From contig CBDCNQ010000005.1 in assembly GCA_965219445.1 (NCBI GenBank), positions 576,001 to 640,000 of the forward strand: a stretch of 64,000 nucleotides of DNA. Reading direction: 5' to 3'. The DNA comes from Longimicrobiales bacterium (GTDB lineage Bacteria; Gemmatimonadota; Gemmatimonadetes; Longimicrobiales; Gaopeijiaceae). How positions within the stretch are numbered: position 1 is the stretch's first letter; each line of letters begins with the position of its first letter. The position numbers were made by a program, and so were the translations under genes. Below are positions 520-34,250 of this stretch, one piece after another. The notes beneath the pieces were generated by a model. That model had not been told where the DNA came from and did not search any database. It saw only the letters and a program-made list of their open reading frames with translations.

Positions 520-1092
520 CAGGAGGTACTCCATCAGGACCGGGACATCCCCCTTGATGATGGCCCGGTCGATCCGGTCGATCTCGCGGCCGATTTCGTG
601 GTCGAATTCGGAGGGGTGGGGATCTCGCGCCCAGTTGGCGAGCACCGTCTCCGCCCGGCCCCGCTCGTCCGTTGTCCGGACGACGACCACGACTTCGATC
701 CCGCGACCGCGATCCCAAAGCGCCTCCCAGAGTTCGCGGTGCGCGGCACCCCAGGAGCGGAGCGCCGTCGCGGTCTCGTGGCCCGGATCGACGTAGACGA
801 AGACGGCGTGCTCGGCGTCAAGCGCGACCGGGAGCCGGAGCGGGAAGTAGCGCCGGAGGTTCCCGGCCGCTCCCCGGTAGACCCGCCGGGGCAGGAGCCT
901 GCGCTCGACGCTGAGCGCCTCGAAGGCGGCCACCTTCTCCGGCTCGGTCGGGAGCCAAGGCAGTTGGGGATGATCGAGCACGTAGTCGAACGCGAGGAGG
1001 CGTAGCATGAGCACTTCCCTGGAGGTGATCCGGCGCCGGCGTCTGTCCCCGGCGCCGAGCGCACGGTAGATGCCGCGCCTGTGGATCCGGCA
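520..1092 (-). pseudogene. Fragment of the ICE wHTH protein (paralogue of 19505-20440)
   Basis: DYVLDHPQLPWLPTEPEKVAAFEAL...RRYFPLRLPVALD...VFVYVDPGHET matches 19505-20440; 5' end cut at ~1092 by an AT-richer segment, 3' end runs into the IS3 fragment. Confidence 0.85.
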
Positions 1093-1306
1093 TCAATACT
1101 CACTCATAGTCTGCCGATGTCCGTAGGGATCCAGTAAGTGCTATAAACAGTTATATTCTATACGGTTATGACTGTTCTACAGCGCCCTGAGCCACCCGTA
1201 GCGGCCGACAAGAGTCGCGACCCGGAGGCCGGACCGGCTCGCTGATCCGCCGCGCTCGCAGTGTCGGCGGACGAGTCCGTCAGGCGCTGAAGAGCGGGGG
1301 CGCGAA

Positions 1307-1415
1307 GGCTGGCTCACGACCCGTTAGCAGTCATGAGCCAGCCTACCCTTTGGGGCCACGCTTCGCGGGTCCCCGGCAGGGGCTGGCGAGGGTGGCTCCG
1401 CCCCCTTCGATCCCC
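1307..1415 (+). promoter_or_regulatory. oriT-like structured site (copy 1 of about 9)
   Basis: GGCTGGCTC..GAGCCAGC palindrome, a hairpin and a G/C hairpin; followed by a mobC fragment. Confidence 0.5.
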
Positions 1416-1439
1416 TGGACGCCCGCGCTCCGGCAGGCC

Positions 1440-1495
1440 ATCGCGCGCACGCGGCCGGCAGGTCGCGCGCATCGGCGGCAACCTCAACCACCTCG
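1440..1495 (+). pseudogene. mobC: MobC (relaxosome accessory) fragment
   Basis: RQVARIGGNLNHL resembles the MobC signature L..IGNNLNQ. Confidence 0.55.
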
Positions 1496-1651
1496 GGGCA
1501 GTTTCGGGCTTGGTCGAGCGCCGACGCCGACCTCACTGGGACGACTTGCCGAGCCACCTAGCTGGTGAAAAGCCGCGACCGGCGGCCGGATTCGTTGATA
1601 CGCCGCGCTCGCAGCGGCGCTTGATGGCCTTCCCGCTAGGGATTGCTGGAG

Positions 1652-1743
1652 GGGAGCGACCCCCGGCGGAGGGTGGCATGGGCGTGCACATGCCAACCCT
1701 CCCCGATGCCGATCGAGGCATCCCGAAGGGGGGGGTCGCTCCC
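1652..1743. repeat. ~93-bp three-stem motif, copy 1
   Basis: Outer stem GGGAGCGACCCC/GGGGTCGCTCCC with two inner hairpins; other copies at 19235, 24054, 48063; variant at 47712. Confidence 0.8.
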
Positions 1744-1882
1744 TTCTTCGGCCGAAAGCTCCGGAGCGGTGTCGCCGCTCCGGCGGCCGTGCCGCAACTG
1801 TAAGACAGGCAGCCACATACGGGAGCGCTGGCGCGCACATGGAAATGGCGTTTCGGTGCACATGCACCCCGTTGTCTGATGT

Positions 1883-1970
1883 GCATCAGGTCGCAGGTTC
1901 GTATCCTGCTACGCCCAAAGGACTTACGGGAATCGTTAGTCCGATTCCCGCTATTTGATTCCCGCTATTT
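1883..1970. mobile_element. Integrase-proximal end of ICE-A, with tRNA-3'-half-like sequence and tandem 14-bp arm repeats
   Basis: AGGTC-GCAGG-TTCGTAT-CCTGC-TACGCCCA (1888-1917); GATTCCCGCTATTT x2 (1943-1970); homologous ends at 12041-12127 and 49632-49718. Confidence 0.7.
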
Positions 1971-1973: not shown

Positions 1974-3137
1974 CTAAGAGCAGGCCCTCGGGCGGTCGTC
2001 GAGGGCCTTCCTGAGCTGGTCCTCGTCGGCCCGCTGGTAGCACTGGAGCACTGTCTGGGCCGTCTTCCAGCCGCCGAGTTGGCAGAGGACCTTGAGCGGC
2101 TGGTCCATGAGGTCGGAGGCGAACTTCCGCCTCAGTGAGTGCCAGCCGCGCCCACGCTTGGGTTCCAGCCCTGCGAGCACCTCGGCCTTCTCCCACCAGT
2201 CGCGGATCGGCCACTGGCCCACGCACATCGAGCCATCCTTGGGCGCGGGCAACACCGGAAGGTCCCCGATCCCGGGGTTCCGCCACCGCGCCTCTTCGAG
2301 GACGCCGAGCGCTTCGGCACTCACCGGGGTCCGGTGCTCGTAGCCGGTCTTCTCATGCTCGCCTCGCCACCGGATGACACGAGCTTCCATGTCGATGTCG
2401 GACCATCGCAACTGACGGATGGCACCGATGCGGTGTCCCGTCTCGTGCGCGAGCACGAGAGCGACGTGAAAGCGCCAGTCCACCTCCACGGACACCCGAA
2501 GCATGGCCTCGTATTCCGCCTCAGTGAGCAGCACCCGGATAGGATTCTTCTCCTTCGGCGTCTTGAGGCCCCTGAGGGGGTTGGACTCGAGCAAGAGCCT
2601 TCCCCTCTCGTCCCTCGACCTCGCGGCCCAGTTGAGGACCGAGAGCAGGAACTTGAGGTCCCGTTCGATCGTCCGGTTGGCCACCGGCTTGCCGCTGCGG
2701 CCGGCTCTGCCCGCCAGCCGCTCCCGGATGAACCGGTCCCAGTCGCGCTGGGACAGCGTGGCGGGGTCGCGCTTCCGTCCGAAGCATCCGAGGAACGTCC
2801 CCATTGTGGCTCTGTCGTACCTCTGGGACGGCTTCGTCTTGGTGGGCGTCACCTCTTCACCGTAGATGTCAAAAAGCGTCTCCAGGGTGAGTGGCTCGGG
2901 CTCGGCGTCCGCCTTGCGGTGGAGCTCCGGCCCGAGGTAGCCAGCGGCGAACTCGTCCGCCTGCCGCTTCGCGCGAGCCCAGTCGCGGTGCTTCAGCGAC
3001 CTTGTGAGCCTGCGCCCGTTCTCGCGCCACTCGATCTGGAACAAGCCGGTCTTGGGATCGGGAAAGACCCGTACCCGGTTCCGGCCCCATTCGCCGGCGC
3101 CGTAGGAGCGCCGGATAGGTTTCGTGCGTGCCATCAT
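1974..3137 (-). CDS. Tyrosine recombinase/integrase of ICE-A
   Basis: ETGHRIGAI, HSLRRKFA, GGW, C-terminal Y; paralogues at 12132 and 48463. Confidence 0.9.
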   Translation of the reverse strand: MMARTKPIRRSYGAGEWGRNRVRVFPDPKTGLFQIEWRENGRRLTRSLKHRDWARAKRQADEFAAGYLGPELHRKADAEPEPLTLETLFDIYGEEVTPTKTKPSQRYDRATMGTFLGCFGRKRDPATLSQRDWDRFIRERLAGRAGRSGKPVANRTIERDLKFLLSVLNWAARSRDERGRLLLESNPLRGLKTPKEKNPIRVLLTEAEYEAMLRVSVEVDWRFHVALVLAHETGHRIGAIRQLRWSDIDMEARVIRWRGEHEKTGYEHRTPVSAEALGVLEEARWRNPGIGDLPVLPAPKDGSMCVGQWPIRDWWEKAEVLAGLEPKRGRGWHSLRRKFASDLMDQPLKVLCQLGGWKTAQTVLQCYQRADEDQLRKALDDRPRACS

Positions 3138-3580
3138 TCGATTCCTCTCTCGATGATGGACTGCACGATCTGCGCGTTGGAAACTTCGCCTCGGCGATGC
3201 TTTTCCACCAGTCGCGGTGTGGCTGGCGCCTGGGTCTTCCGTGGCAGGATCGAGCGGGCGATCCTGGGCGCGCCGGGTCTTCCGGCGTTGGGGATCCTGC
3301 CGTCGCGCACGAGGCGGCCGAGATGGTCAGCGGAGTAGCCGCTCTCCCTGGCTGCCTCCGTCAGCGAGAGGGTGGTCTCGTCCCTCTCCCTGAGCGTGGC
3401 CTCGAGCTCGGCCGCGCAGCTTTCGAGCGCGACGGCCGGCGTCTCGCCCCCGTACCGGCGGAGCGCCTTGGCCTGCGTCCGCCAGGTGACTGGCAGGGTC
3501 TCGACGGACGCGCCGCGAGGTGTGCGCGCACGTTTGGGTCGATCTCGTCGGCCCGCCGCGCGCCCGGTCTCCGCGTTCAT
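3134..3580 (-). CDS. Excisionase-like HTH protein
   Basis: LSLTEAARESGYSADHLGRLVRDGRIP; stop overlaps the int start; conserved at 13292-13681. Confidence 0.7.
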   Translation of the reverse strand: MNAETGRAAGRRDRPKRARTPRGASVETLPVTWRTQAKALRRYGGETPAVALESCAAELEATLRERDETTLSLTEAARESGYSADHLGRLVRDGRIPNAGRPGAPRIARSILPRKTQAPATPRLVEKHRRGEVSNAQIVQSIIERGIE

Positions 3581-3891
3581 TCCCAGTCGCCCTCGGCGTC
3601 TCTGCGGAGCGCGTCGGTGAGGGCCGGGTCGCCCTCGCCGCGCCGAACGGAGCGCTCGGCGAGATCGACGCGCCGGCCGAGGTCGGCGAGCCCGGCGGCG
3701 CGTGCGACGGCGTAGATGGCGGCCGCAACGGCTGCGAGTGCCAGCCCGGCGTGCACTGCGATCAAGACGCCGTGTTCGGCGAGGAGGAGCGGCCAATACG
3801 GCGCGAGGTATTCGAGGCGCGGCCCGGCGAGCAGCACGGCAGACCCCGCGATGGCGGCGGTGAGGCCGGCGCTGATTTTCCAGGGTTGCAT
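3577..3891 (-). CDS. Small membrane protein
   Basis: Hydrophobic segments; conserved paralogue at 13688-14002. Confidence 0.75.
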   Translation of the reverse strand: MQPWKISAGLTAAIAGSAVLLAGPRLEYLAPYWPLLLAEHGVLIAVHAGLALAAVAAAIYAVARAAGLADLGRRVDLAERSVRRGEGDPALTDALRRDAEGDWE

Positions 3892-3909
3892 GGCGGGCCT
3901 CTCCCGTAG

Positions 3910-4812
3910 TCAGAGTTCGACTGCGGCCGGATCGCGGTCGGCGGGTCCCCGGAGCGAGGAGCGGTCGCCGCCGCCGCCCAGGCCGAGCGTGCGCAGCAGC
4001 CGCGCCGCGGCCGGTCCGTTGGCGTGGAGCGCGAACCCGGCCGCCGCTTTCGCCTTGATGGCCCCTTCGCGGTAGTTGCCGGACGCGACCTCGATGTTGA
4101 CGCGTCCAGCTCGCCCGTCGGCATCGGCGTACTCGATCTGGGCGTCCGGGTAGAGCACGTGCCCTTCGTCGTCGAGGGGGAGTCCGAGTTCGCCGGCGGT
4201 GCGGTGCCGTTCGGCATCGGCGGCCCGCTTGCCGTCCTTCAGCCGCGCCGCCTCGCTGCCGCGCGCGACGGCGCTCTTGAGTTCGGTGTCGAGCCGGATG
4301 CGCCGCACTGCTGCGCCCCGGTCGAGCAGCCGCTGTTTCTCCTTCATGCAGGCGCGGTAGACGGCGGTGTCGTGCGCGGCCTCGGCAGGCCGGGTGCGGG
4401 CGAACCGGATTTCCTGGCTGGGATCGATTCCCCGTTCGGCTGCCCGCTTCCGAGCTTCGGCCACGCCGCTGCGGGTGAGCGTCAGGACCTTGAACGGGTT
4501 GCCCTTGGGTCCGGTGGCCGTGGTCTCGGTGACGAGCCCTTCCCGTACCCAGGCGTTCACGGCCCGCCGGGTGGTGTAGGGGTGTCCGCCGAAGTGGGCC
4601 TCGGCCAGATCGCGGTACGAGACGGCGCCGTAGACGCCGATGTCGGCGAGCCCGCGCGCGCACCGTTCGGGGAAGGAGGTGGACCCGCGGTCCCTGCTCG
4701 CGGCGTATTCTCGGCGATGGCCGTCCCGCATGCGGTAGCGATTGCGGCTGGGTGGCGCGGCGGTCCGCGGGTCCGGTTCGACCGTGCGGTCGAACATCTC
4801 CTGGCTCCTCAC
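3910..4812 (-). CDS. Putative Replic_Relax/MOBC-like relaxase
   Basis: N-terminal wHTH-like region, HD, then PDAQIEY...VNIEV..NY..AIKAK (PD-(D/E)XK-like); paralogue at 14024-14923. Confidence 0.6.
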   Translation of the reverse strand: MRSQEMFDRTVEPDPRTAAPPSRNRYRMRDGHRREYAASRDRGSTSFPERCARGLADIGVYGAVSYRDLAEAHFGGHPYTTRRAVNAWVREGLVTETTATGPKGNPFKVLTLTRSGVAEARKRAAERGIDPSQEIRFARTRPAEAAHDTAVYRACMKEKQRLLDRGAAVRRIRLDTELKSAVARGSEAARLKDGKRAADAERHRTAGELGLPLDDEGHVLYPDAQIEYADADGRAGRVNIEVASGNYREGAIKAKAAAGFALHANGPAAARLLRTLGLGGGGDRSSLRGPADRDPAAVEL

Positions 4813-4818
4813 CGACCG

Positions 4819-5847
4819 TCAGCGGCGCGGCCCGAAGGTCCGCTGCGGCACGGGGAGCGGCGGCACGGGATGGACGATTCGCCCCGGCGCGGGCGCGCGG
4901 GTCGCGGCCACGGCCGCGGGTTCGCGCACGGCCTCGCGCTCGCGGTGCCGCGAGAGCACGAAGTCGGAGATCTTCTGCGAGTCGGCGGCGGCGCGGCGGA
5001 TCTCGCGGGGGTCCTCCTCGAGTGCGGCGATCCAGCCCTCGACGTACGCGGCGCCCCGGCTCGGGTCATGGCCGACGCCCGCGCGCTCGCCCGTCATCAT
5101 GGCACTGATTTCGGCGCGGAGCTCCTCCTTCGCATAGGCCGGCGAGGCGAACCCTTCAGAGATCCCTTGGGTGAGCGTCTCGCGGTTCATGCGTTCCGGG
5201 TGGCCGGTGCTGTGCCCCAGCTCGTGTAGCGCGGTCTGGTAGTAGTGGTTGGCGGAGGGGAACTGTCCACGCTCGGGCAGCACGATCTCGTCGCGGTTCA
5301 GGTTGTAGAACGCCCGGTCGCCCGCCACGTGACGGACGGGGACCCCGCTGTCCTCGAGGACGCGTTCGGCCTCCTGGTGGACCTTCCAGAGCGGCTCGGC
5401 GGTGGGGTTGGCGCGCGCGGGCAGCCCGTCGGCCTGCTCGGCGTTGAACACGGTGTACTGGCGGACGACGGGCGTGGGCAGGCGCTCGTGGCGGTAAACG
5501 CGCTTGCCTTCGTTGTCCCTCTTGGGCCGCCCGCGCTCGTCGTTGACGGCGAACTTCCGGTGGTCCTGGAACGAGAGGATGCGAGTGCCCTGCTCGCCCT
5601 TGCGCACCTGTCCGTCCCGGGCTTGGATCTGGCGGTAGGTGCCCCAGCGCACGTCGCCGTAGCCGCGCTCCTGGGCCACGGCGGCGAGATGCAGGCTGTT
5701 CCCGCCCCTGTAGGAGCGGCCCGTATCGACGTTGGAGGGGAGCACGCGCTCGCCCGGCCCCCAGGGCTTCTGCCAGAGCGCGGTGCCCTGGCGGATCTGC
5801 TCGATGATGGCGTCGGCGAACTGGCGGTGATATTCGTCGTGTTTCAT
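4819..5847 (-). CDS. ardC: ArdC-like ssDNA-binding/antirestriction protein with zincin domain
   Basis: WQKPW, YRGGN, WGTYRQ, VRKGE, VFNAEQ, HELGH, EELRAE. Confidence 0.85.
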   Translation of the reverse strand: MKHDEYHRQFADAIIEQIRQGTALWQKPWGPGERVLPSNVDTGRSYRGGNSLHLAAVAQERGYGDVRWGTYRQIQARDGQVRKGEQGTRILSFQDHRKFAVNDERGRPKRDNEGKRVYRHERLPTPVVRQYTVFNAEQADGLPARANPTAEPLWKVHQEAERVLEDSGVPVRHVAGDRAFYNLNRDEIVLPERGQFPSANHYYQTALHELGHSTGHPERMNRETLTQGISEGFASPAYAKEELRAEISAMMTGERAGVGHDPSRGAAYVEGWIAALEEDPREIRRAAADSQKISDFVLSRHREREAVREPAAVAATRAPAPGRIVHPVPPLPVPQRTFGPRR

Positions 5848-6044
5848 AGCTCTTCCTCCTCGGGGCCGTGCGGATCCTCTGCGGCGTCGCGGATCTCGTC
5901 CTCGCTGCCCACGTCCTCGGAGAAGAGGCCGTACTCTTCGGCCAGCGAAGCCGGCACCTCGAGCGCCTCGCCTCCGTCGCGCGCGAGCTCGCGGTCGAAG
6001 CCGTCGAGCGTCTCGACGCGAACGATGTTCTCGTCGCCTTTCAT
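5844..6044 (-). CDS. Small acidic protein
   Basis: Overlaps both neighbours; paralogue at 15956-16153. Confidence 0.7.
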   Translation of the reverse strand: MKGDENIVRVETLDGFDRELARDGGEALEVPASLAEEYGLFSEDVGSEDEIRDAAEDPHGPEEEEL

Positions 6045-7048
6045 GGGTTCACCTCCTTGGTGTGTGGGTGCTGTTCTTGCGGGGCTTCGTCGGCCCCGCT
6101 CCAGATCGGTTCGGCGATCCAGCGGCCCTTGGCCGCGTCGTAGCCGCGCACTTCGAGCGCCTCCTCGACGAAGCGCCTGCCCCGTTGCCGGGCCGTGTGC
6201 AGCACAAGTGCGATCCCGTCCACGACGCCCCGGCAGGTGACCTCCCAGGGAAGCGCGCCTTCGGCCTGCATGGCGCAGCTCGCTAGGCGCGAGAGCGCGG
6301 AGCGGGCGTTGTTCGCGTGGATGGTGGTCAGCGAGCCGCCGTGGCCGGTGTTGAGCGCCTGCAGCAGATCGGCGGCCTCGCCGCCCCTGACCTCGCCGAC
6401 GACGATGTGGTCGGGCCGGTGGCGCAGCGCGTGCCGCACCAGGTCGCGGACCCGTACGGAGGTCTCGGTGCCGACAGCCCCGGCCTCGAAGCGGAGGCAG
6501 TTGGCGCGCTCGATCCTGAGCTCGAGCGTGTCCTCGATGGCGACGATCCGCTCGTCTTCGGGCAGCAACTCGATCAGCGCGTTCAGGAGCGTCGTCTTGC
6601 CCGAGCCCGTGCCTCCGGAGACCAGGATGTTCCTGCGGGCCAAGAGGGCCGACCGGGCGGCCCCGAGGACCGTCTCCGGCAGCGAGCCCATGCGCACCAG
6701 GTCCTGAGCCGAGAACGCGCGGCCCCCGAACCGGCGTATGGTGATGGCGACCTCGGGACTCGCGGGCGGCGTGCAGATGGCGACCCTTGAGCCGTCCTCG
6801 AGACGGGCATCGAGGATGGGCCGTGTGGCGGGATCGAGGCCGAGCGGCCGGGCGATGTGGATCGCGGCGCGGTGGAGCCAGGCGGCGGTGAGTGCCGGCG
6901 CCTCGTGGGGCTCGAGTCGGCCGCCTCGCTCGATCCAGACGTTGCCGGGTCCGTTGATCATGATCTCGGAGACCTCCGGGTGCTCAAGGAGCGTCTCCAG
7001 GCCCGGAAGGAACGGCTTCAGGTGCCCGATCCCGCTTGCGCGCTTCAT
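6041..7048 (-). CDS. virB11: VirB11/TrbB/CpaF-family traffic ATPase
   Basis: SGGTGSGKTT, IEDTLEL, RPDHIVVGEVRG, TGHGGSLTTIHA; ATG at 7048. Confidence 0.9.
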   Translation of the reverse strand: MKRASGIGHLKPFLPGLETLLEHPEVSEIMINGPGNVWIERGGRLEPHEAPALTAAWLHRAAIHIARPLGLDPATRPILDARLEDGSRVAICTPPASPEVAITIRRFGGRAFSAQDLVRMGSLPETVLGAARSALLARRNILVSGGTGSGKTTLLNALIELLPEDERIVAIEDTLELRIERANCLRFEAGAVGTETSVRVRDLVRHALRHRPDHIVVGEVRGGEAADLLQALNTGHGGSLTTIHANNARSALSRLASCAMQAEGALPWEVTCRGVVDGIALVLHTARQRGRRFVEEALEVRGYDAAKGRWIAEPIWSGADEAPQEQHPHTKEVNP

Positions 7049-7581
7049 ATCCGTCCCTCCTCGCGGAGCCGCCAGTAGCCCACGTCCCTCGGCAGGTAGT
7101 GGGGTTTCAGGTAGACGCGCCGGGCAGGGAGCGACTTCGTGCCGTCGTATGGCAGGCAGATCGCCTGATAGTTGGCGAGCAGGCTGAAGTCCCGGGGCGT
7201 GAACACGGGCTCCCTCTGCTGCCGGAACGACTTGCTCGCGCCGATCGTGCCGCGGCCCCCTCCGGCTCGCCCGGACAAGAGCGAGAACTCGGGCCTGCCC
7301 GTGGTCTCGGTGAACGTGTAGGAGGGCTGCGTCTTCATGACGCTGCCGCACATCTCGGACGCGATCCGGGCCGACGACTCGTCGCTCAAGGACAGGAAGA
7401 TCCGGGTGCGGAGCGTCTGGAGGAGCGTGCGCCAGGCCTCGCCTCCGGGCAGCACGGAGCGGAGCGAGGAGATCGACTGCGTGGCGACGATCGGGACGCA
7501 GCGGCACTGCCGGGTGAGCGCGAACGCCTTCTCGTCGCCAGCGGGGTCGTCCTGGCCGACGGTCGCGAACGCCTGGTACTC
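7045..7581 (-). pseudogene. virD4: virD4-like coupling protein of ICE-A, 3' part
   Basis: EYQAFATVGQDD...EEGRI matches the C-terminus of 17155-19200; begins at the 9-bp core. Confidence 0.9.
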
Positions 7582-7736
7582 CTTCCACGCACTGTCCATC
7601 TAGGTTCTAGGAAGTCCCATAAGACAAGTGAAGTGGTTGTAGGGGATATACTTACGTTATATTGCCATCTCAGTACGGCTGCTATGTTCCAAGACTGAAA
7701 GGGTGATCCACAGGGTGATCGCAAAAGGGTGACCAC

Positions 7737-8897
7737 ATGGGCAGACACGGCAAGAAACTCACTGCCGCCTTCGTGCGGAGCGTCCAGGAACCGGGGCTGT
7801 ATTGGGACGAGCACGGCCTCGTGCTACGGGTCAAGCCGTCCGGCTACAAGCAGTGGGTCCAGCGACTGTTCATTCACGGCAAGCGCAGGGAGTTGGGGCT
7901 CGGTTCGGTCCGCCTCGTGACGCTGGCCGAGGCGCGGGACGCGGCGCTGGCCAACCGCAAGGTGGCCCGCGCGGGCGGCGATCCGAGGACGAAGCGGCAC
8001 AGTTCAGTGCCGACGTTCGAGCGGGCGGCGGCCAAGGTCTTCGCCATGCACCGTCCGACCTGGACCGACAGGCACGCGGGCCAGTGGATGGCGACGCTGC
8101 GCGCCTATGCGTTTCCCGGGATCGGGGGGAAGCGGGTGGACCGGATCGCGCCCGCCGACGTCATGGGGGTGCTGCTTCCGGTCTGGAACGGGAAGCACCA
8201 GACGGCCAAGCGGGTCCGCCAGCGGATTTCGACGGTGATGCGGTGGGCGATCGCGCAGGGCTACCGCATGGACAACCCCGCGGGCGATGCGATCGGCGCC
8301 GCGCTGCCGAGGCCTCCGCGCGTCCAGAAGCACTACAAGGCGCTACCCTACGGGGAAGTGGCCGGGGCGATTGACGCGATCCAGCGATCCGAGGCAAGGG
8401 TGACGGTGCAGCTGGGCTTCGAGTTTCTGGTGCTGACGGCCTGCCGGTCGGGCGAGGTGCGTGGGGCTCGCTGGGAGGAGGTCGACCTGGAGGGCGGAGT
8501 GTGGACGATCCCGGCGGAGCGGATGAAGAGCCGGCGGGAGCACCGGGTGCCGCTGTCGGCGCGGGCGAGGGAGATCCTGGCCGAGGCGAAGGCGCACGCG
8601 CCTCGTTCGGAGTGGGTGTTCCCGTCCGTGCGGGGGCTGGTGCTGCCGAGCTTCGAGTTCGCGGGCCTGCTCAAGGCGCTCGGGATCGCGGCCGTGCCGC
8701 ACGGCTTCCGCTCCAGCTTCCGGGACTGGACGGCGGAGCGCACCGACGCGCCGCACGCGGTCATGGAGGCGGCGCTGGCGCACGCGGTCCGCAACAGGGT
8801 GGAGGCCGCCTACGCCCGCTCGGACCTGTTCGAGCGCCGCCGCGTCCTGATGGAGCAGTGGGCGGGCTACCTGGCTGGCGAGCGTCGACACGCGTAG
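7737..8897 (+). CDS. P4-type tyrosine integrase with N-terminal arm-binding domain
   Basis: GLVLRV..W..R..GLG; TACRSGE, EHRVPL, HGFRSSFR, LAH, AAY. Confidence 0.92.
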   Translation: MGRHGKKLTAAFVRSVQEPGLYWDEHGLVLRVKPSGYKQWVQRLFIHGKRRELGLGSVRLVTLAEARDAALANRKVARAGGDPRTKRHSSVPTFERAAAKVFAMHRPTWTDRHAGQWMATLRAYAFPGIGGKRVDRIAPADVMGVLLPVWNGKHQTAKRVRQRISTVMRWAIAQGYRMDNPAGDAIGAALPRPPRVQKHYKALPYGEVAGAIDAIQRSEARVTVQLGFEFLVLTACRSGEVRGARWEEVDLEGGVWTIPAERMKSRREHRVPLSARAREILAEAKAHAPRSEWVFPSVRGLVLPSFEFAGLLKALGIAAVPHGFRSSFRDWTAERTDAPHAVMEAALAHAVRNRVEAAYARSDLFERRRVLMEQWAGYLAGERRHA

Positions 8898-8954
8898 GCC
8901 GGTGCCCAGCCGCCGAGGGGCGATCCGTTGAGGCCCGATCCGAGGCCGATCCAC

Positions 8955-9065
8955 GGCTGGCTCATGACCCCTTAAGGGTCAAGAGCCAGCATACCCCTTG
9001 GGGCCACGCTTCGCGGGTCCCCGGCAAGGGCTGGCGAGGGGCTCCGCCCCTTCGACCCCCGACAG
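8955..9065 (+). promoter_or_regulatory. oriT-like site, copy 2
   Basis: GGCTGGCTCATGACCCCTTAAGGGTCAAGAGCCAGCATACCCC...; very similar to 1307-1415. Confidence 0.5.
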
Positions 9066-9282
9066 GTCCGCGCTCCGGCGGAGCGCGCAGTCGGGGGCTC
9101 CGCCCCCCTTCCCCCGGTGCGTCCCGACCGTGGGGGCTATTGAGAACGGTATACCGCTTCACGTTCAGCCCGCCGGTCGAGACCATCCTGCACCGCGTGT
9201 CCGGGTCGTCCCACAGGTGCGCGACTCTCCCGCGCTTTCGTCGGATCAGGTAGAGCTGCGTCCCCGGGTCCCCTTCGGTCAC
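8962..9282 (-). CDS. Small hypothetical protein (3' end uncertain)
   Basis: Protein-like N-terminal half (AHLWDDPDTRCRMVSTGGL); 3' half runs through the structured site. Confidence 0.3.
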   Translation of the reverse strand: MTEGDPGTQLYLIRRKRGRVAHLWDDPDTRCRMVSTGGLNVKRYTVLNSPHGRDAPGEGGRSPRLRAPPERGPVGGRRGGAPRQPLPGTREAWPQGVCWLLTLKGS

Positions 9283-10183: not shown

Positions 10184-10189
10184 GATCCG

Positions 10190-12127: not shown

Positions 12128-12131
12128 GGGC

Positions 12132-25659: not shown

Positions 25660-25755
25660 CATCCGCGTGGTCGTCGACTTCAGCCGTCTCGATTTCATCA
25701 GCAGCGCGGGCATGCGGGTGCTCCTCATCGCCGCCAAGGCGCTGAAGGCGACAGT
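25660..25755 (+). pseudogene. STAS (anti-anti-sigma) domain fragment
   Basis: VVVDFSRLDFISSAGMRVLL. Confidence 0.7.
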
Positions 25756-25841
25756 TTGGCCGGGGAAAAGAGGACGGTGGCCAACCGCCCTTGCCGTGGT
25801 TACTTGAGAGTTGCCAAGTCCACTCAAGCCACGAGGGAAAG

Positions 25842-25920
25842 ATGACCACCGTCCAGAAGGAGAAGATGGCGCGTCGGAAGCTGAGCCTGCTACGTCTGGC
25901 TCAGGAGCTGGGGAAACGAG
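25842..25920 (+). pseudogene. IS481-family transposase N-terminal fragment
   Basis: MTTVQKEKMARRKLSLLRLAQELG. Confidence 0.6.
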
Positions 25921-26070
25921 TTGCTGCTCAAGGGAATCCAGGTGAGCTCGACGGGCGTGTGGGGAGCTGTTTCGGCAATCGAAGAACAAGGGAGAGAGTC
26001 AGGATATATCGTCAGAGTCTAGCCTTGACGGTGTGGACTCTATGTTGTCCGTTAAGAAGAGGAGCATGAC

Positions 26071-27015
26071 ATGAATCGGCTCATATCTGTTGTCTCGTGC
26101 TTTTTGGTCTCATTGATGCTTCCGTGTGTATCGGAGGCCCAACAGCTATACGTGAGTACTGAGTCGGGCCTTGGGATCGGAAATTCCTTGGGTACCCTAG
26201 GTAGCGATACTGATTTTCCAACTCTCTGCGACAGGCACCTGGATCCCGCCAACCACTTCTCGCCACCGGGAATTACTGAGCCCGGAGAATGCTCGTCCGC
26301 AGCGTCCACTTGGATCAACAGCTTCGGTAGTTCAACCGGAATAATCTCCGGCGTCGCTCTGGGTTTTAAGACCGACATCGGGGCAAGAATTGAAGTGGAA
26401 TATTTTCGGTCTGGCATGCAGTACAATGCGACCTCAGTGCTCGGTGGAGGAGGAGCGGACGTTCAGGACAAATCGGACCAGGAACTCGTCCGCGGGGAGG
26501 AACGCATAGGAAGTGTCAACATAAACAGTTTGGTCGGTAACATCTACTATGACCTGCCGGTTTCCGGACAACTCCGTCCATATGTCGGAGGCGGCGTGGG
26601 TCTCGGCATGGCCGGCCTAGACTATGCCGGATTCTTTTCGCGAAACCTAGACCCTGACGCCATCAAGACGGCGGACGAAGCTACCTACAACGGCAGAGGC
26701 AACGAAGCGGTCGACCGCCAGGCTCTGCATGAGAGAATCGCTGGTACGACCACAACGGCCAGTCACACGCTTCACGATACAATATTGGGCTACCAAGCAA
26801 TGGTGGGAGTGGACTATATGCTGACCGACGACGCTTCTATCGGAGTCAAGGGACGCTGGATCAAGCACGCCAAGTTTAGTGACAGTAACGAATGGGATCA
26901 GTTGCGCAGTCATAGCTCTGACAATGGCTCGGGAACTAACGCCGTCGTCTATACCATTGAGACCGAGGACTTGAGCTCGATTGGTGTCACTCTGGTTATG
27001 AAATACGCGTTCTGA
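26071..27015 (+). CDS. Outer-membrane beta-barrel protein (opacity/surface-antigen-like)
   Basis: Signal peptide, RIEVEY, NIYYD, PYVGGGVG, YQAMVGVDY, terminal F; GAGGAG RBS. Confidence 0.85.
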   Translation: MNRLISVVSCFLVSLMLPCVSEAQQLYVSTESGLGIGNSLGTLGSDTDFPTLCDRHLDPANHFSPPGITEPGECSSAASTWINSFGSSTGIISGVALGFKTDIGARIEVEYFRSGMQYNATSVLGGGGADVQDKSDQELVRGEERIGSVNINSLVGNIYYDLPVSGQLRPYVGGGVGLGMAGLDYAGFFSRNLDPDAIKTADEATYNGRGNEAVDRQALHERIAGTTTTASHTLHDTILGYQAMVGVDYMLTDDASIGVKGRWIKHAKFSDSNEWDQLRSHSSDNGSGTNAVVYTIETEDLSSIGVTLVMKYAF

Positions 27016-27388
27016 TTTTCGGGGCAGGTCAATACGCGACATCGCACGACCCATAGATCCCGAGGATCCCACGAGGGTGCTTTTTCGGCTTGGCCAAGCT
27101 TAGACGCGAGCGGCATAGACAGGATCGTGTCCACCGCGCTGGGGGTAGCCGCCGATGCTCGCCAGCAGGACCTGCGGTGGTAGGGGCATGGGCGAGCGGC
27201 TAGGCGCATCTCGATCCGGTGGGAGTTACCCCACGTGCAGGACCCACTCTTTTCCGGCAGCGCAAGGCCGTCGCACAGCACATGGACGTTATAGTATGGG
27301 GGAGTCAGGCGAGGTCGGTCAGCCTGCCTGGCTGGGACGTTGGGGCGGGAGCGGATCGCCGACATGTCGGAGATTGCGCAACCCGCCG

Positions 27389-29071
27389 ATGAATCTCACG
27401 ATCGCGGATATGATGTCATCCTCCACATTCCTTCGAATGCCGACACCCTATCAAAATGTTGTTGACCAGCTCGATCTAGCCGCCGCATTGACTAATGGAT
27501 CGGAAAGAAACGATCTGCTGCTGCCGCGAGCTGAGGACAAGGTAGGCGGGGAGGTTGGCAACAGGTTTCTTCAGGCTCTGATACGCGACCTCGAACGCGG
27601 GAGATATGATCCGGCTCCTGCATATACCGTCAGGGTGCCGAAATCCACATCTGCGACGCGTCCCGCGGCCCTACTGACGCTCAACGACCGAGTCGTCTAT
27701 GCAGCCTTGGTGGCTACGCTACGTTCGCGGATCGACAGTTACCTTCTCGGCGAAGAAATCGTCTTCTGGCCCCGAGGTCTACAGCGTAACAAGAGCTGGC
27801 TCAAGTTCGAGCACTCGCCGCTCACCGATTCATGCAAGTATGTGGTCCTCGCTGACGTCTCGGGCTTCTACGAATCGGTGGACCATAGGCGCTTGGCCGA
27901 GCGATTGATCCGAGCCACTGGCAAGCGAGCTGAAGTCGAGGCGCTATCCCATTTCCTGACGAGAGTGATGGGCGGCTCCCGTGGCCTACCTCAGGGGCTC
28001 GATGCTTCAGACCCGCTCGCCACAGCTTATCTAGCAGAGCTGGATTTGGCGATGATACGTAATGGATTCGCTTACACGCGACATGGGGACGACTTCCGCG
28101 TCGCGATGAAAGGCTATGACGATGCTCGCGGTGCCTTATACACCCTTGAAGCATGCGTGCGGAGCGCGGGCCTGCTCCTAAGTGGACACAAGACGAGAGT
28201 GCTGAAGGCATCAACCTATAAGGATGCCGTCCAGTCAATTGAGAAGTCGATTGCCGATGTGCGAAGCAAGGTCCTCAGCAAGAAACTCGCAACGCTAGAG
28301 GATGATCCGGATGCGCTAGACACGGCCATCGATCTTGCTGACATGGAACAGCTCGGGTGGGATTTCTTCTATCATGGGAACGTGTCATTGCAGGAAGTTA
28401 TTGACCAGTTGCGGCCGTCACTCGAGCCGAATGCGGTCGAGATTGCCGAGGACCTTTTCGCAGAAACGTGGGAGCGGAGACCCGGTAAACCCAACGCTCT
28501 TGCTAGCGATGCCTTTCATCAGAGGATTGTCGCTTCATTGGTCAGGTTGGCAGCGGGGCGCTCTCCCAAAGCGCTGGGGGCAGCAGGCGATATCCTCATT
28601 TCATATCCCGAGAAATCGGAGGTTGTATGCTCGTATCTCCTCGCGCTGGCGGGAACAGAACCCAAGAAGGTCGCCGCGCAGGCGAGCAAGACCTTGAAAG
28701 CCGGGCGGTTCCGCACGGAGTGGGAGGTGGCGTGGGCTGCCCGGGTCTTAACCTCCGTTGCGGATCAGTTGCCGGAGTGGGTCGTCTCGCAACTGGAGGC
28801 GCTGACCACGTCACCTTTCGATTCGTGGCTCGCAGCAACCGAGGTAGCCAAGCTTCTGAGTGCCCAAGGGGAGCTGAGTCGTGAGGCGTTTATGCTCCTC
28901 TGGAATGCCTGCCCCGTTGTCTTTCGGGCGGACCTCGTCGTAGCGGCGAACAGTCTCTCCACGAATGCAGAATGGGCGAGGGTCTTCCTGTCTGCGGTCA
29001 AGGATGATCGTATTCATCAGGTGATACTAGGTCAGTTGCAGCAACAGGGTACCCAGCCTGCGACCTCCTAG
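27389..29071 (+). CDS. Reverse transcriptase (UG/Abi/DRT-like) with helical C-terminal domain
   Basis: VPK..TRP, ADVSGFYESVDH, GLPQG, RHGDDF, HKT; start uncertain (27389 or 27437). Confidence 0.85.
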   Translation: MNLTIADMMSSSTFLRMPTPYQNVVDQLDLAAALTNGSERNDLLLPRAEDKVGGEVGNRFLQALIRDLERGRYDPAPAYTVRVPKSTSATRPAALLTLNDRVVYAALVATLRSRIDSYLLGEEIVFWPRGLQRNKSWLKFEHSPLTDSCKYVVLADVSGFYESVDHRRLAERLIRATGKRAEVEALSHFLTRVMGGSRGLPQGLDASDPLATAYLAELDLAMIRNGFAYTRHGDDFRVAMKGYDDARGALYTLEACVRSAGLLLSGHKTRVLKASTYKDAVQSIEKSIADVRSKVLSKKLATLEDDPDALDTAIDLADMEQLGWDFFYHGNVSLQEVIDQLRPSLEPNAVEIAEDLFAETWERRPGKPNALASDAFHQRIVASLVRLAAGRSPKALGAAGDILISYPEKSEVVCSYLLALAGTEPKKVAAQASKTLKAGRFRTEWEVAWAARVLTSVADQLPEWVVSQLEALTTSPFDSWLAATEVAKLLSAQGELSREAFMLLWNACPVVFRADLVVAANSLSTNAEWARVFLSAVKDDRIHQVILGQLQQQGTQPATS

Positions 29072-29840
29072 GAAAGCAGCCTAGTTATCCGAAACCCCTC
29101 GCTCCACCACGGTAGGAGTCCATATTTTTGGTACATGAATCCCAACTAGAGTCCGAGCATGGATCGAGCTGAGGCTCTTGCCGTCGTTGACCGGGCCCTG
29201 AGCAAGTTCCCGGAATTGCGCCGTGTGCGGTGTGGGTCTCCTGTCCATGTGTCGTGGGTGCAGACTACAACCATGGATCTTAGCTGGCGAGCTCGGCGGC
29301 CCGGGGATCGTCAATGCGCACGTTCGTCGAACCTGAGCCGACGATGGCGATTAAGACAGCAGTGCCGACACTCGACGCTCGGCTCGGCTGGCAGCCGAGT
29401 TAAACCGTCCACGAAACTGGATCAAGCCCAGAAGGTGCTGCGCGCCTCCGCCGATTGCGCCACGGCCCTCTTAGACTTGCCACTTGCGCCAGCTCCAATC
29501 GACTATCAGTCTCCGATGGACTTCAAGCGAAGCCGTGACGAGGCAGAATGAGGCCGCCTTCTACTCCACCGCTTCACGGCGGAAGCTTTGGCTCCCCGTT
29601 GCTACGCGAGGAGCCAAGACCAGCTCGGCCTTGCCAGCGCAGCCGCCGTGGTGGGGATGAGCCATGTGCTCGTCGCCATGAATCTGCCACGCGGAGGCGG
29701 GCCATTTCCTGGGCTACCCCCCGCGTGGGGCGATTGGAATCTTCCGTTACCGGCTCGATAGTGTGGGATCCGTTGATCGGGGTCCTTGGGAGGCGGTATC
29801 CTCAAATGAAGGCCATCGGACTCAACTGGAGGTGACTCAA

Positions 29841-30698
29841 ATGCCTTTGTCCTGGCAGTTACATGCCTTCGGAGCCACGCTTGCGATCTGCACCCTGCTC
29901 GGCGGAGCGGAACAAGGTGCGGGTCAACAGCCGGGGTCTTACGGGTGGTACGTGAGCGCGAGCGGCGGGACGAACTGGAATCCCGTCATGAAGCAGGCGG
30001 GCCATAACCGGGACAATATCTGTTACCCGAATGACCTTTGCAGCGGCACGCCCGATGGCTACCGCTGGTTTTACGACCTTCCCTCGGATCTCGGTACTGC
30101 TTTTGAAGTCGCCGTCGGTCGAAATTTCGGCGACGTGCGCGTGGAGGTGTCGGTCTCCCAGCGATCGAACAACGTCGAGCAAGAGTTCACCGACATTACC
30201 TTTCTGGATGGATCTCCGATCCTGCCTAACGAAGACAGCAACTATACGTCGGCCAACACAACCAGGGTCGATGCTCTGGGTGCGCGCACGCTGTCCCTGA
30301 ACGCCTATCACGACTTCGCGTTCGCAGAAAGCCGGGTCATGCTTTACCTGGGCGCCGGACTGGGCCTGTCCTTCATCGAATTGTCCGGGCTGTATTTCAG
30401 CAGCGAATATTCCTGCATCAATCCGCCGTGCGACGGTCGTCCCGCGGCGGAGTACAACAGTCTGCAGGACGTTGATCTGTCCGACAGCGGGCTTGCGAAG
30501 CAGCTCTTTGCCGGTGCCGACTATCGTTTGGGCGACAAGCTCCTGCTCGGCCTGAAGGCGTCCTACAGCTGGGTCCACGACCTTGTGGACACGAGTCCTT
30601 ACGAGGTGCATCCGTTTCCTATAATGAACGACACTGAAATCAGTGGCATCAATCCCTGGTCGATGATGCTCGGCTTCAAGTACCTGCTCGGCGAGTGA
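29841..30698 (+). CDS. Outer-membrane beta-barrel protein
   Basis: GGAGG RBS, signal peptide, NAYHDF, YLGAGLG, GADY, GFKYL. Confidence 0.8.
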   Translation: MPLSWQLHAFGATLAICTLLGGAEQGAGQQPGSYGWYVSASGGTNWNPVMKQAGHNRDNICYPNDLCSGTPDGYRWFYDLPSDLGTAFEVAVGRNFGDVRVEVSVSQRSNNVEQEFTDITFLDGSPILPNEDSNYTSANTTRVDALGARTLSLNAYHDFAFAESRVMLYLGAGLGLSFIELSGLYFSSEYSCINPPCDGRPAAEYNSLQDVDLSDSGLAKQLFAGADYRLGDKLLLGLKASYSWVHDLVDTSPYEVHPFPIMNDTEISGINPWSMMLGFKYLLGE

Positions 30699-31029
30699 GG
30701 GGTCGTCCCGACGGATATTGACATGCCACGCGTCGGTGCGGTCCGACCACTACGCGGCCAGCGCTTTGGGATCAACATTGCCTAGTTTTCCACGGTGAGC
30801 CTGCAGGGCTGTTCGGAGCGCAGACTTTGCTCGTGTGTCCTCGGCGAGTTCCCCATTGATTTGGCCGACGAGACCTCTAGTGGCCTCTCCTAGTCCGCGT
30901 CCCCTCAACCGACCCCAGCAGCTGCCTGCCGCCATATGTCCTTCGTGTGGCGCGCGACTCAGGACGCACCGGCAAGAGGGACGGGGGGCGAGCCAGCCGC
31001 CCGTGACCTCCGCCGGAGCGCGGGCGTCC

Positions 31030-31141
31030 AGGGGATCGAAGGGGGGCGGAGCCACCCCTCGCCAGCCCCTGCCGGGGACCCGCGAAGCGTGGCCCCAAAG
31101 GGTAGGCTGGCTCTTGCACCGTAAGGTGCTCCGAGCCAGCC
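31030..31141 (-). promoter_or_regulatory. oriT-like site (inverted)
   Basis: Close to the reverse complement of 1307-1415. Confidence 0.5.
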
Positions 31142-31486
31142 CGGCGGACGCCGCCGAAGCAGCGGGGGAGGGCTTCGGCTGTGACCCGTCCAGATAGGCC
31201 CGCCCAAGCTATCTGCCGCAGTAACGCGGCTGCGGACTGCCGCAGACCCGGAACACGGCACTCCGGTTCGAATATTCCCAGCATCGTTCGTGCGCAGGCC
31301 GACGTCCGGTCGAGATCCGCACCCATTGACGGAGCCTTCGGCGAAGGCCGACGGGGCGTTTGGCAAGCCGCTGGCGGCGGTGTCCAACAGCCCCTGTACC
31401 GTACTGAACGTCTCTGAACGCCACAGGCATTTAGGAGGTTTTCTACGGGTTGACTTCCTTGCAAACGGCTCCTCACCGTTAGGGGC

Positions 31487-32023
31487 ATGAAGACGCTGAA
31501 GCAGCAGTTCAACTCGGCGGCGAGCGGAGCCATCGTCCACCTGCGGGGACGCGAACGGGCACTCGAGGGATTTGGCTGGGCGGGCCGTCAGGCCGAGTGG
31601 ATCGCCTTGGCCTGTCTCCATGGCGGCGTGTTCACTCGGGCTCAGTGGACGAGCTTTCTGGGTTGCCACCACGAAAAGGTGCGCCGCGCCGTCCGCGTCC
31701 TCGTCGCGCAGGGCGTGGCCGTCGAAGAGGATCCGCCCGGCATCGACGGCATCGGTCGAGTGTGCCGAATCCACGCGCGCCGGATCTACCGGGCGCTCGG
31801 CGCCGGGAACCGCCGCCGCCGCCGGATCACCTCCACGGAAGTGCTGATGCGGCGCCTGCTCTCGCTCGACTATGTGCTTGATCATTCCCGCCTGCCTTGG
31901 CTCCCGACCGAGCCGGAGAAGGTCGCCGCCTTCGAGGCGCTCGGCATCGAGCGCAGCATCCTGCCCGTCCGGGTGTACCGGGGCGCCGCAGGCGAGACGC
32001 GGCGCTACTTCCCGCTCAAGTAG
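31487..32023 (+). pseudogene. 3'-truncated ICE wHTH gene
   Basis: Matches 19505-20440 up to RRYFPLK, then stops at an att-like junction. Confidence 0.85.
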
Positions 32024-32025
32024 CG
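32003..32025. mobile_element. att-like junction: 8-bp inverted repeat around a 7-bp spacer
   Basis: CGCTACTT-CCCGCTC-AAGTAGCG, followed by AT-richer DNA and an integrase. Confidence 0.7.
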
Positions 32026-32199
32026 TAGTATGATCGTCCATTTCATCCCATGCTGTCCCATAATGTACCATAACTCGGGTTATATCAACGCTATACAGCA
32101 CGTATGGACCGTGTTCACAGACTCCCTCTTGCGCCGATTCGTACCGTGTTGTACCATGGTGTATCCGTCGATATGTGATACACAAGTAGGACACCATAC

Positions 32200-33384
32200 A
32201 TGCGTAAACGACCGCTTACGGCTGTCTTCGTGGCACGGGTGACGACGCCGGGACGCTACGGCGACGGGGGGCGCGGCGGACTCGGGCTGTACCTCCGCGT
32301 CCACCGAATGAAGTCGGGGCGCGTCTCCAAGTCCTGGGGCCAGCGCGTTCGAGCGGGAGGGAAGCCCACCAATCTCGGACTGGGCTCGTATCCGGTCGTG
32401 ACGCTCAAGGAAGCGAGGGAGGAGGCGCTGGAGAACAGGCGCGCGCTCCATTGGGGCCACGATCCGAGAGCCGCCGGGGTTCCCACCTTCGAGGCGGCCG
32501 TCGAGAAGGTGATCGTGATCCACTCGCCGACCTGGAAGAGCCCTTCCCGCATCGCCGGACAGTGGCGGCAGACGCTGAGGGACTACGCCCATCCGCGCAT
32601 CGGCCGAAAGCGCGTGAGCGAGGTCGCGACGGCCGACGTGCTCGCGATCCTACAGCCCATCTGGTCAAGCAAGCCCGCAGCGGCGAGGGTCGTGCGTCAG
32701 CGGATCGGCGCGGTGATGAAGTGGGCCGTCGCGAAGGGCTACCGGTCGGACAACCCGGCGGGTGACGCCATCGCCGCCGCGCTGCCGCGGAACGGCAACG
32801 CCACCCGGCATCACCAGGCGCTCCCGCATGGCGAGGTGTCGGCGGCGCTGGTCAAGGTCCGCAACTCGGGGTCCCATGCCGGTGTCCGGCTGGCGCTCGA
32901 GTTCATGGTCCTGACCGCGACTCGCTCGAACGAGGTCCGGGGCGCGACGTGGGACGAGTTCGATCACGATGTCTGGACCATTCCCGCCAGCCGCATGAAG
33001 GCGAAGCGCGAGCACCGGGTTCCCCTGTCGAGGCGGGCCTTGGAGATCCTTGAGGAAGCCCGGAAGCGCCACGACGACGGCGAGATCGTCTTCCGGGGCG
33101 CGAAGGGAGGAGGCATCAACGCCTCGCTGTTCAGCGGCTTGCTCCGGGGTCTCGGCATCGAGGGAACGCCTCACGGGATGAGGTCCTCGTTCCGCGACTG
33201 GTGTTCGGAGACGGGCGTGGCGCGCGAGGTGGCCGAAGCGGCGCTGGCCCATGTCGTGAAGAACAAGGTCGAGGCCGCCTACGCCCGTTCCGACCTGCTG
33301 GACCGGAGGCGCGAGGTCATGGAGGCCTGGGCTGCGTACCTGGTCGGCGAGCGCCGGTCCGCTGAGGCCGATCCGGTCTGCTGA
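32200..33384 (+). CDS. P4-type tyrosine integrase
   Basis: TATRSNE, EHRVPL, HGMRSSFR, LAH, AAY. Confidence 0.92.
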   Translation: MRKRPLTAVFVARVTTPGRYGDGGRGGLGLYLRVHRMKSGRVSKSWGQRVRAGGKPTNLGLGSYPVVTLKEAREEALENRRALHWGHDPRAAGVPTFEAAVEKVIVIHSPTWKSPSRIAGQWRQTLRDYAHPRIGRKRVSEVATADVLAILQPIWSSKPAAARVVRQRIGAVMKWAVAKGYRSDNPAGDAIAAALPRNGNATRHHQALPHGEVSAALVKVRNSGSHAGVRLALEFMVLTATRSNEVRGATWDEFDHDVWTIPASRMKAKREHRVPLSRRALEILEEARKRHDDGEIVFRGAKGGGINASLFSGLLRGLGIEGTPHGMRSSFRDWCSETGVAREVAEAALAHVVKNKVEAAYARSDLLDRRREVMEAWAAYLVGERRSAEADPVC

Positions 33385-33429
33385 GGCGCTGGCTCATGAC
33401 CCGTTACCTGTCAGGAGCCAGCCTACCGG

Positions 33430-33956
33430 TCCTCCGGGATCGGCTCGCCGAGCTCGAGATCCCGTTCGAGACCGAGGAGAGCGAGGGCGGTGCGGGCAGC
33501 GAACTCAGGGAGCAGGTGGAGGCGATCGAGCGCTGGTACCTGAACGACTGGGTGGCACTCGATGCCAAGCTCCGCACCTCCATCGTGGAAGGCATCTCGG
33601 TCTTCCTGTCGCTGTTCGATCAGTCCGGCGTGGCCGGAGTGTTCTGTCCGCCGCCTCCGGAGCCGGATGAATCTACATCTATACATATAGGTGACGGTGC
33701 GCCCGGCGAGGACGCCGCGGCCGTCCGGCCCATGTCGGGCCCCCGCCGCCGGCTGCCGCCGCTCACGGAGCTGATCGAAGGGGGCCGGGTCGTGGCCCTC
33801 AACATGCCTGCGGGCGCGAACCCGGCGCTCGGCCGCGCCATCGGCGTGCTGCTCAAGAACGCCTGGATGCAGGCGCTGCTCCGGCGGCCCGCAGAGGCCG
33901 CCCGCCGGCCCGGACGCTACCTCCGGCCCGCAGTGTTCATCTGCGACGAGTACCAG
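33430..33956 (+). pseudogene. virD4: Third virD4 fragment, ending at the Walker B core
   Basis: ...VEAIERWYL...FICDEYQ, then satellite-type end sequence. Confidence 0.88.
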
Positions 33957-34250
33957 TCGGATGTGTTATGGATAATAACACCATGTGGCATAACAGTTTA
34001 TGGTGTCGCTTGTCCCCCGTCGATCACCCTTGAGATCACCCTTTTCGCGGCGGGTAGCGGAATCCCATGGAGCAGTTCCGTTCGCCGTTCGGTCGTTCGG
34101 CCGTCCTGTGGGACCCGGCCTCGTCCCATAGCGACTTCCGGCAACTCAAGTTCGACGGCGGCCGCATCTCGGGGGATGAGGCACGCTTCTCGAAGCGGTC
34201 GCTGCTCGCCGTGTTCCAGCCATCGAGGCTCCTCCGCGGCCGGGTGGAGC
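33948..34250 (-). mobile_element. End of a second virD4-targeting satellite with an HU remnant
   Basis: GAGTACCAG core, GATCACCCT at 34022 and 34034, similar to inverted 11050-11281; VFQPSRLLRGRVER HU tail. Confidence 0.85.

Follow-up and report, generated by a model that had tools for sequence, protein, structure and literature searches.

Why do the integrative elements on one stretch of a Longimicrobiales genome end, again and again, inside the conjugation genes of a single integrative and conjugative element (ICE) family? The stretch analyzed here, called the window, is 64 kb long and corresponds to C5:576001-640000 of a 4.56-Mb genome in 5 contigs (G000); positions given without a contig name are window positions. 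An initial annotation of the window had described seven junctions, arranged as a nested stack. All seven are present, each matching its claimed position exactly or to a few bases, but the region turned out to be a deleted and scrambled pile and not a clean nesting. The explanation that we consider probable is that satellites with P4-like integrases enter site-specifically at fixed cores of 9-14 bp in ICE genes, restore the interrupted genes upon excision, and exit through the pore of the ICE.

A Pfam scan of the window gives eight full-length Phage_integrase open reading frames (ORFs), all of the tyrosine type, in agreement with the number originally proposed; three of them fall outside 520-34250. 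Five are P4-like (ORF starts at 7737, 22619, 32200, 51677 and 54503) and contain Arm-DNA-bind_3 and Phage_int_M, with PF13356, PF22022 and PF00589 all above cut-off in these five of the eight, and their PRK09692 score is below the cut-off of that model. The three ICE-type ORFs (starts at 1974, 12132 and 48463) match PF00589 only and are 76-78% identical to each other. No transfer RNA (tRNA) gene was found in the window, and no phage or primase domain among the 60 window ORFs scanned with Pfam.

Satellite S1 (7573-11281, plus strand; 3.7 kb) lies in the gene virD4-A, where the annotation had placed it; it sits in the Walker B codons and is closed by 9-bp direct repeats, CTGGTACTC, at 7573 and at 11273-11281 within the virD4 DEYQ codons. 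Empty virD4 alleles without S1 exist elsewhere in this genome. The P4-like integrase of S1 (7737-8897, plus strand) is flanked by arm-like repeats at 7700, 7712, 7726, 11187 and 11199, and is followed by an oriT (origin of transfer)-like motif at 8955-9079 and by an HU/IHF-like gene (10569-10901, minus strand; PF00216) that is present in other S1-type elements too. No relaxase gene was found in S1 by Pfam scan. Its cargo at 9341-10183 encodes a membrane protein with 30-bp tandem repeats. Restoration of virD4 by S1 itself, through the in-frame ORF 7045-7599, was rejected because this ORF is not conserved and has a stop in a related locus (L041).

The third virD4 of the window, annotated as cut at 33956, is cut at 33948-33956 in the same 9-mer. 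Its fragment (33428-33956, plus strand; codons 296-472) ends in the S1 core and meets the far end of an S1-type satellite (33948-34194, minus strand), which is 83-87% identical to 11036-11281. An S1-type far end also cuts a virD4 at the same junction in another genome (G014), and a closed S1-type element is found in G262. Four of the five relatives with an integrase at least 88% identical to that of S1 sit in the same virD4 DEYQ codons, and the fifth has the same 9-mer in an unrelated gene. One S1 relative in virD4 has the reverse orientation and is closed by the same repeat, and one sits in a Bryobacterales (Acidobacterium) virD4 that is only 54% identical; in the Bryobacterales genome the integrase is 89% identical against 69% for the host. 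The closest relatives of the S1 integrase come from records with the titles Longimicrobiales, Gemmatimonadota, Ca. Palauibacter, Bryobacterales and Gammaproteobacteria, taxa which we take to point to marine sponge symbionts.

The same pattern is seen with the IntA-like element that had been described as cutting virB5 (22432-24605, plus strand). Its core (22432-22445) lies in virB5, and it comprises an integrase (22619-23905), a leader and a fragment of a winged helix-turn-helix (wHTH) gene, while its far end is missing. A search with this integrase gave 22 loci, nine of them non-self with integrases 92-94% identical. Seven of these nine, from seven genomes and three genera, are at virB5 codon 210; of the remaining two, one is in a TIR gene and one is elsewhere with the same core. 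Four of the seven (G117, G352, G284 and G368) are closed by direct repeats, are 8.6-18 kb long, and have the rest of the ICE beyond them. At six virB5 loci the integrase is 91-92% identical to the window copy while the host virB5/virB6 genes are 77-80% identical, and therefore the insertion must have occurred repeatedly. Relatives at 79-84% lie in a 104-aa ORF, at virD4 codon about 215, in the leader hairpin and at other sites.

Satellite S2 (32008-33427, plus strand) consists of a core at 32008-32020, a P4-like integrase (32200-33384) and a broken oriT-like motif, the rest being deleted. It breaks off at 33427, some ten bases away from a nic-like site, and we do not claim a relaxase-mediated fusion there. 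S2 cuts a wHTH gene (31487-32020) in the arm of a second satellite (29767-32020, plus strand; oriT-like motif at 31012-31116), which is 98% identical to a locus with an intact wHTH gene. The other cut wHTH gene retains its 3' part, codons 75-269 (526-1092, minus strand; by tblastn), and is fused to a fragment of an IS3-type insertion sequence (IS) transposase (286-526, plus strand; rve_3), whose positions 306-526 share 98.6% identity with a further IS copy. It is cut at codon 75, with the same junction in G501, by the integrase-proximal end of a P4-like satellite (1083-1206, plus strand) that has lost its integrase gene at about 1203-1206; a copy on C5 keeps the integrase. Both wHTH genes are thus cut at about 1092 and 32023 as annotated, but the cuts are at two sites (codon 75 and codons 157-160, 32008-32020) and were made by two different elements, and both genes lack an adjoining virB8 and look like satellite-borne copies. 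Five of the seven full S2 copies in this genome are at wHTH codon 160 (two of them beside virB8); the remaining two lie in an ICE integrase and an IS gene, respectively. S2 in G007 is closed by a 13-bp repeat. Eight of 11 non-self loci keep their end, seven of them in ICE-family genes (wHTH two, virD4 codon about 145 four, ICE integrase one) and one in a methylase, and at three S2 loci the integrase is 93-99% identical against 74-76% for the host.

If instead ICE transfer or gene conversion had carried a few old insertions around as composites, the recurrence would simply be inheritance. Element and host are indeed about equally diverged at four loci (L041, L218, L239 and L360), and the ICE-A/ICE-B arrangement of the window is collinear in G362. 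Against this, the integrase is at least 13 points closer to the window copy than the host gene is at 6/7 virB5, 1/4 S1 and 4/4 S2 loci tested, and the same cores occur in unrelated genes (L042, L242 and a second ICE-B copy). The discordant divergence refutes inheritance for the virB5 and S2 subtypes, and as a general account we find it highly improbable.

How far does the preference for ICE genes extend? In this genome we examined, by hand count, the upstream flanks of 33 P4-like integrases, which lie in ICE-family genes in 19 cases, in other mobile DNA in 4, and in host or unresolved sequence in 10. Collapsed by hand into distinct subtype-site pairs, 12 of 23-26 fall in the ICE family, which covers 3.6% of the genome (p<1e-10, indicative only, the copies not being independent). 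None of the 33 integrases has a tRNA nearby, the nearest being 2.7 kb away, and the tRNA or tmRNA insertion usual for P4-like integrases is thus not seen here; the longest upstream tRNA match is 19 bases, whereas two distant control integrases reach 26 and 42 bases. The 80 GTDB relatives of the S1 integrase that were examined have a tRNA upstream in 0/8 close, 1/23 middle and 18/49 distant cases, counting ARAGORN calls only, after a loose tRNA-fragment motif had given a false positive (L048). In a tree of 95 integrases, picked and labelled by hand, a tRNA-free clade of 70 members (support 0.945) is nested among tRNA users, although the nodes just outside are weak. The initial suggestion that P4-type integrases use ICE genes and not tRNAs therefore stands as far as the 19/33 against 0/33 and the recurrence of junctions go; it does not apply to the junctions at 1883 and 12041, which were made by the ICE's own non-P4 integrases, and sister subtypes are found outside ICEs. 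ICE genes are strongly preferred, but other targets are used too.

At least ten different sites in one 15-kb ICE family are hit by two integrase clades about 28% identical, and closed or paired insertions in this genome (C5 33023-38679, 12179-19014, 1640100-1649500 and 1002813-1016329) lie in the ICE integrase, virB11, virB4 and ardC. The number of sites, and the fact that several are in genes needed for transfer, speak against a safe-harbour account, in which the clade merely drifts to new protein-gene cores, with ICE genes over-represented as multi-copy, conserved and dispensable targets; targeting would then be sequence-specific but give no control of the helper, and mobilisation would be ordinary and in trans. 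Such an account would accommodate the sister subtypes, whose targets are IS genes, the ends of P4 integrases, repeat proteins, restriction genes and methylases, and metabolic or other host genes, as well as the dozens of ICE fragments in this genome, many of them decayed copies, and the virD4 cores, whose conservation ranges from the 52nd to the 93rd percentile and is not exceptional throughout. We regard it as rather unlikely. A stronger version of the satellite explanation, which we offer tentatively and with some doubt, is that two P4-like clades divide an undescribed cross-phylum ICE family between them, each gating another transfer gene, so that excision of the passenger would have to precede any movement of the ICE, and that ICEs would escape by synonymous core changes. 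In the gene virD4-B (17155-19200) synonymous changes have altered the S1 core, the core that ICE-B itself uses and the codon-215 core, unlike in most of 15 intact virD4 alleles, which keep the S1 and ICE-B cores; these changes could possibly be target escape or self-avoidance.

Two further subtypes have as their target a short hairpin immediately upstream of virD4's start codon (window 51520-52912; L006, L247, L249 and L250). Middle-distance relatives (L058, L062, L115 and L063) adjoin genes with LDL-receptor, leucine-rich or fibronectin repeats, and a 25-bp flank motif is common to two integrase subtypes in opposite orientations (C1 216773, C2 177393, C5 1680308, 55442 and 1327469).

The ICE family that receives these insertions has its full gene order intact in G006, G014 and G016: regulator, virB2, virB3, virB4, virB9, virB10, virB5, virB6, virB8, wHTH gene, leader, virD4, virB11, ardC, a 299-aa ORF, two small ORFs and the integrase. 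VirB11, VirD4, VirB6, VirB8 and ArdC are matches to Pfam or NCBIfam, while virB2, virB3, virB4, virB5, virB9 and virB10 were named by translation and gene order. The integrase, pore genes and coupling protein of a VirB-type (MPF-T) ICE are thus present, with VirB4 named from translation and order. The 299-aa protein gives a lead, and only a lead, to Replic_Relax in the Atlas (score 0.90, rank 10). A profile search with PF13814 gave no match, its control likewise matching nowhere. Judged from its genes, the host element is an ICE-like family with a candidate relaxase only. The wHTH protein has 2652 homologues, and among the 120 listed no Pfam family appears except in VirB8 fusions; a structure search gave no significant fold, only MarR-like matches with E above 0.02. 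ICE-family sequence makes up 3.6% of this genome, and the integrase end is matched in 50/401 genomes of the phylum, in two families.

In the window the family is represented by ICE-A (1974-7581, minus strand), with an integrase, 129-aa and 104-aa ORFs, a candidate relaxase (3910-4812), ardC, virB11 and the C-terminal part of virD4 (by Pfam), and by ICE-B (12031-22445, minus strand), with an att core at 12031-12042, integrase, candidate relaxase, ardC, virB11, virD4, leader, wHTH gene, virB8, virB6 and the cut virB5. The middle part of virD4-A, codons about 212-472, lies between them (11273-12042, minus strand). Over 5.6 kb, ICE-A and ICE-B share 83% identity. A 98% identical copy of ICE-B over 10.4 kb elsewhere in the genome runs on through intact virB5, virB10, virB9 and part of virB4.

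ICE-A, whose end was originally put at 1883, ends at 1885/1886 within the leader motif; other places in the genome have leader alleles that are empty. The leader (1596-1885; by self-BLAST and empty alleles) is common to ICEs, where it lies between the wHTH gene and virD4, and to satellites. ICE-A-type ends are found at the leader in four places in this genome and in 3/4 close relatives. In the att end of ICE-A (1874-1915, plus strand) positions 1884-1915 are the relic of a tRNA 3' half, matching host tRNA-Val in 25/32 bases, and these bases belong to the element and not to the flank. We rejected insertion of ICE-A in a tRNA gene, and likewise a tandem array, since its flank consists of leader and there are leader alleles without it. 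Eight of nine relatives of the ICE-A integrase at 78-85% identity are at tRNA genes, judged by eye with 14/30 loci examined. We read the decayed tRNA 3' half in the att arm of non-tRNA subtypes such as ICE-A as an apparent record of target switching. ICE-type integrases cross over just past the anticodon loop of several tRNAs (L307, L308, L313, L315, L319, L322, L329 and L330).

ICE-B ends at 12031-12042 inside virD4-A, as claimed, with a 12-bp core common to the second ICE-B copy, which is located in a gene that we take from its translation to be hsdM. In G362 the junction is found again within 9.2 kb of collinear sequence that has the same A/B arrangement and lacks S1. Relatives of the ICE-B integrase at 85% are in type ISP restriction genes in 2/3 scanned, and targets of the ICE-integrase family also include tRNAs, restriction genes, mobC and IS genes. 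ICE-C (48463-49719) and its relatives L268, L269, L278 and L280 end in satellite mobilisation genes, the relatives showing a mobC motif; by their ends these appear to be ICEs landing in their own hitchhikers. One ICE subtype sits tail to tail in the integrase 3' end of another ICE in two genomes (C4 223775-226135 and C5 461572-463932; L017).

Could the junctions be artefacts? Misassembly of a repeat-rich metagenome-assembled genome, joining unrelated copies, is the explanation to which we give least credence. The related integrase families occupy about 73-75 loci in this genome, six junctions have no partner end, and no read spans the region; the four public runs, available as short contigs only, did not bridge the junctions, two records at the S1 junctions having fewer than 31 bases on one side, and small-share runs were not counted as evidence. 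The empty S1 joint 7572-11273 was found in 3/4 public runs, and may represent never-occupied alleles. A metagenome scan for integrase relatives gave identities of at most 57%. Yet each of the seven window junctions was found again in at least one other genome, and they fall on conserved cores. The stretch across 12041 is collinear in G362, and repeats within the window are mostly only 70-90% identical. Recurrence in independent assemblies backs each junction, not the long-range order.

The satellites may be mobilisable. A conserved non-coding motif (1307-1434), with CTGGCT on the minus strand at about 1336-1341, has 40 matches in this genome, its conservation ends right after CTGGCT, and it resembles the ColE1 nick sequence CTGGCTTA (PMC5703827, accessible part). 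It lies less than 300 bp from 9/12 MobC hits, several times 270-285 bp before them. Going by the motif itself, it is likely to be a ColE1-type oriT of the satellites. Eight relaxase and 12 MobC hits occur elsewhere in the genome, and some satellites carry mobC and a relaxase, unlike S1. S1 and the closed virB5, wHTH and virB4 elements each have their own integrase and direct repeats at both ends, as do integrative mobilizable elements (IMEs).

Taken together, P4-like integrases would insert the satellites site-specifically into ICE-gene cores, each subtype having arisen by a change of core from a tRNA-targeting ancestor. Precise excision would restore the frame of the broken gene, and the excised satellites, which we infer to be parasites of the ICE, would leave through the transfer pore of the helper, S1-type satellites without a relaxase using one in trans. 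The ICE's own integrases, also tRNA-derived, would add ICE-into-ICE insertions, and the one-sided junctions would be accounted for by later deletions and by recombination among the numerous related att sites; elsewhere in the genome the two ends of one satellite lie in virB4 and in a host gene whose core is similar.

Several observations weigh against this explanation. Only S1 has both ends inside the window, 6/7 window junctions being one-sided. More distant relatives of S1 have other cores: among 18 non-self S1-like loci, 15 lie elsewhere than the virD4 DEYQ codons and one is unclear, and relatives at 50-61% identity adjoin assorted host genes. The element that made the cut at 1092 has eight other loci, one at wHTH codon 75, one elsewhere and six in an IS transposase, presumably of the IS3 family by reading of its translation; because of these six, 1092 is probably a secondary site of its satellite. 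Some recurrences (12041 in G362 and 1092 in G501) may be one inherited composite. No ICE relaxase scored above the Pfam or NCBIfam cut-off, a coupling between this VirD4 and the satellites' relaxase is putative, and circular forms or excision products were not observed.

The strategy of a satellite embedded in its helper is itself known, and we have not found it described for the P4-like group or for this ICE family. Our literature search, which covered mainly openly accessible main texts, brought up no paper that describes P4-like integrases as having a series of sites in the genes of VirB-type ICEs, and none on the family. As far as the accessible parts of the sources below go, streptococcal IMEs insert in traG (virD4), maff2 and snf2 of Tn5252-superfamily ICEs (PMC5357655, PMC5704250), with the same site-specific insertion in conserved ICE genes, several coupling-protein sites, disruption of the target and proposed excision before transfer. 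They use serine integrases in Firmicutes, whereas here the integrases are P4-like tyrosine enzymes, the system is VirB-type, and virB4, virB5 and virB11 are hit too; the targets of streptococcal tyrosine integrases are tRNAs, housekeeping genes or oriT (same sources). Phage-inducible chromosomal islands (PICIs) embedded in their helpers (PMC10111431) likewise involve a P4/PICI-related tyrosine clade, repeated helper-gene tropism, subclades matching sites, and off-target insertions. There a prophage serves as helper and its satellites have primase and packaging functions, whereas here the helper is conjugative and the satellites have an oriT-like site; the targets found here are in the conjugation region, not prophage late-gene attB sites with a primase and AlpA module. 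In the accessible part of PMC10111431 'conjugat' and 'ICE' occur nowhere, and a review (PMC11389934) covers both streptococcal IMEs and helper-embedded PICIs. IME_oriT elements in the oriT of Tn916 and ICESt3 (PMC5704250) are, like ICE-A and two satellite subtypes on the leader, tyrosine elements on a non-coding ICE transfer site; they carry Rep-Trans relaxases, and the leader is only a putative counterpart of oriT. Faecalibacterium matryoshkas (PMC12084326) show similar multi-level nesting of IMEs in ICEs, and iOriT islands (bioRxiv 10.64898/2026.01.13.699239) are likewise relaxase-less with oriT only; both concern other ICE families and hosts, and a P4-like clade with many ICE-gene sites is not described in their accessible text.

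The remainder of the window contains cargo (24880-30698, plus strand; by Pfam) with a nucleoside deoxyribosyltransferase, outer-membrane barrels and a reverse transcriptase (27155-29071), methylase and restriction genes (36849-46151 and 56275-59127), one split by IS110, and at 59635-64000 a CRISPR (clustered regularly interspaced short palindromic repeats) array, interrupted by a Mutator-family IS, next to cas4/cas1 and cas5.

With these elements, the embedding of satellites in their helpers extends to tyrosine integrases and Gram-negative-type conjugation, apparently in uncultured marine symbionts. With close integrases that are 80-98% identical, have different mapped cores and a tRNA-targeting outgroup, the change of specificity is directly testable, and the series could yield integrases for new landing sites. 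The insertions also explain the broken look of such ICEs in surveys, and island finders based on tRNAs would miss these elements.

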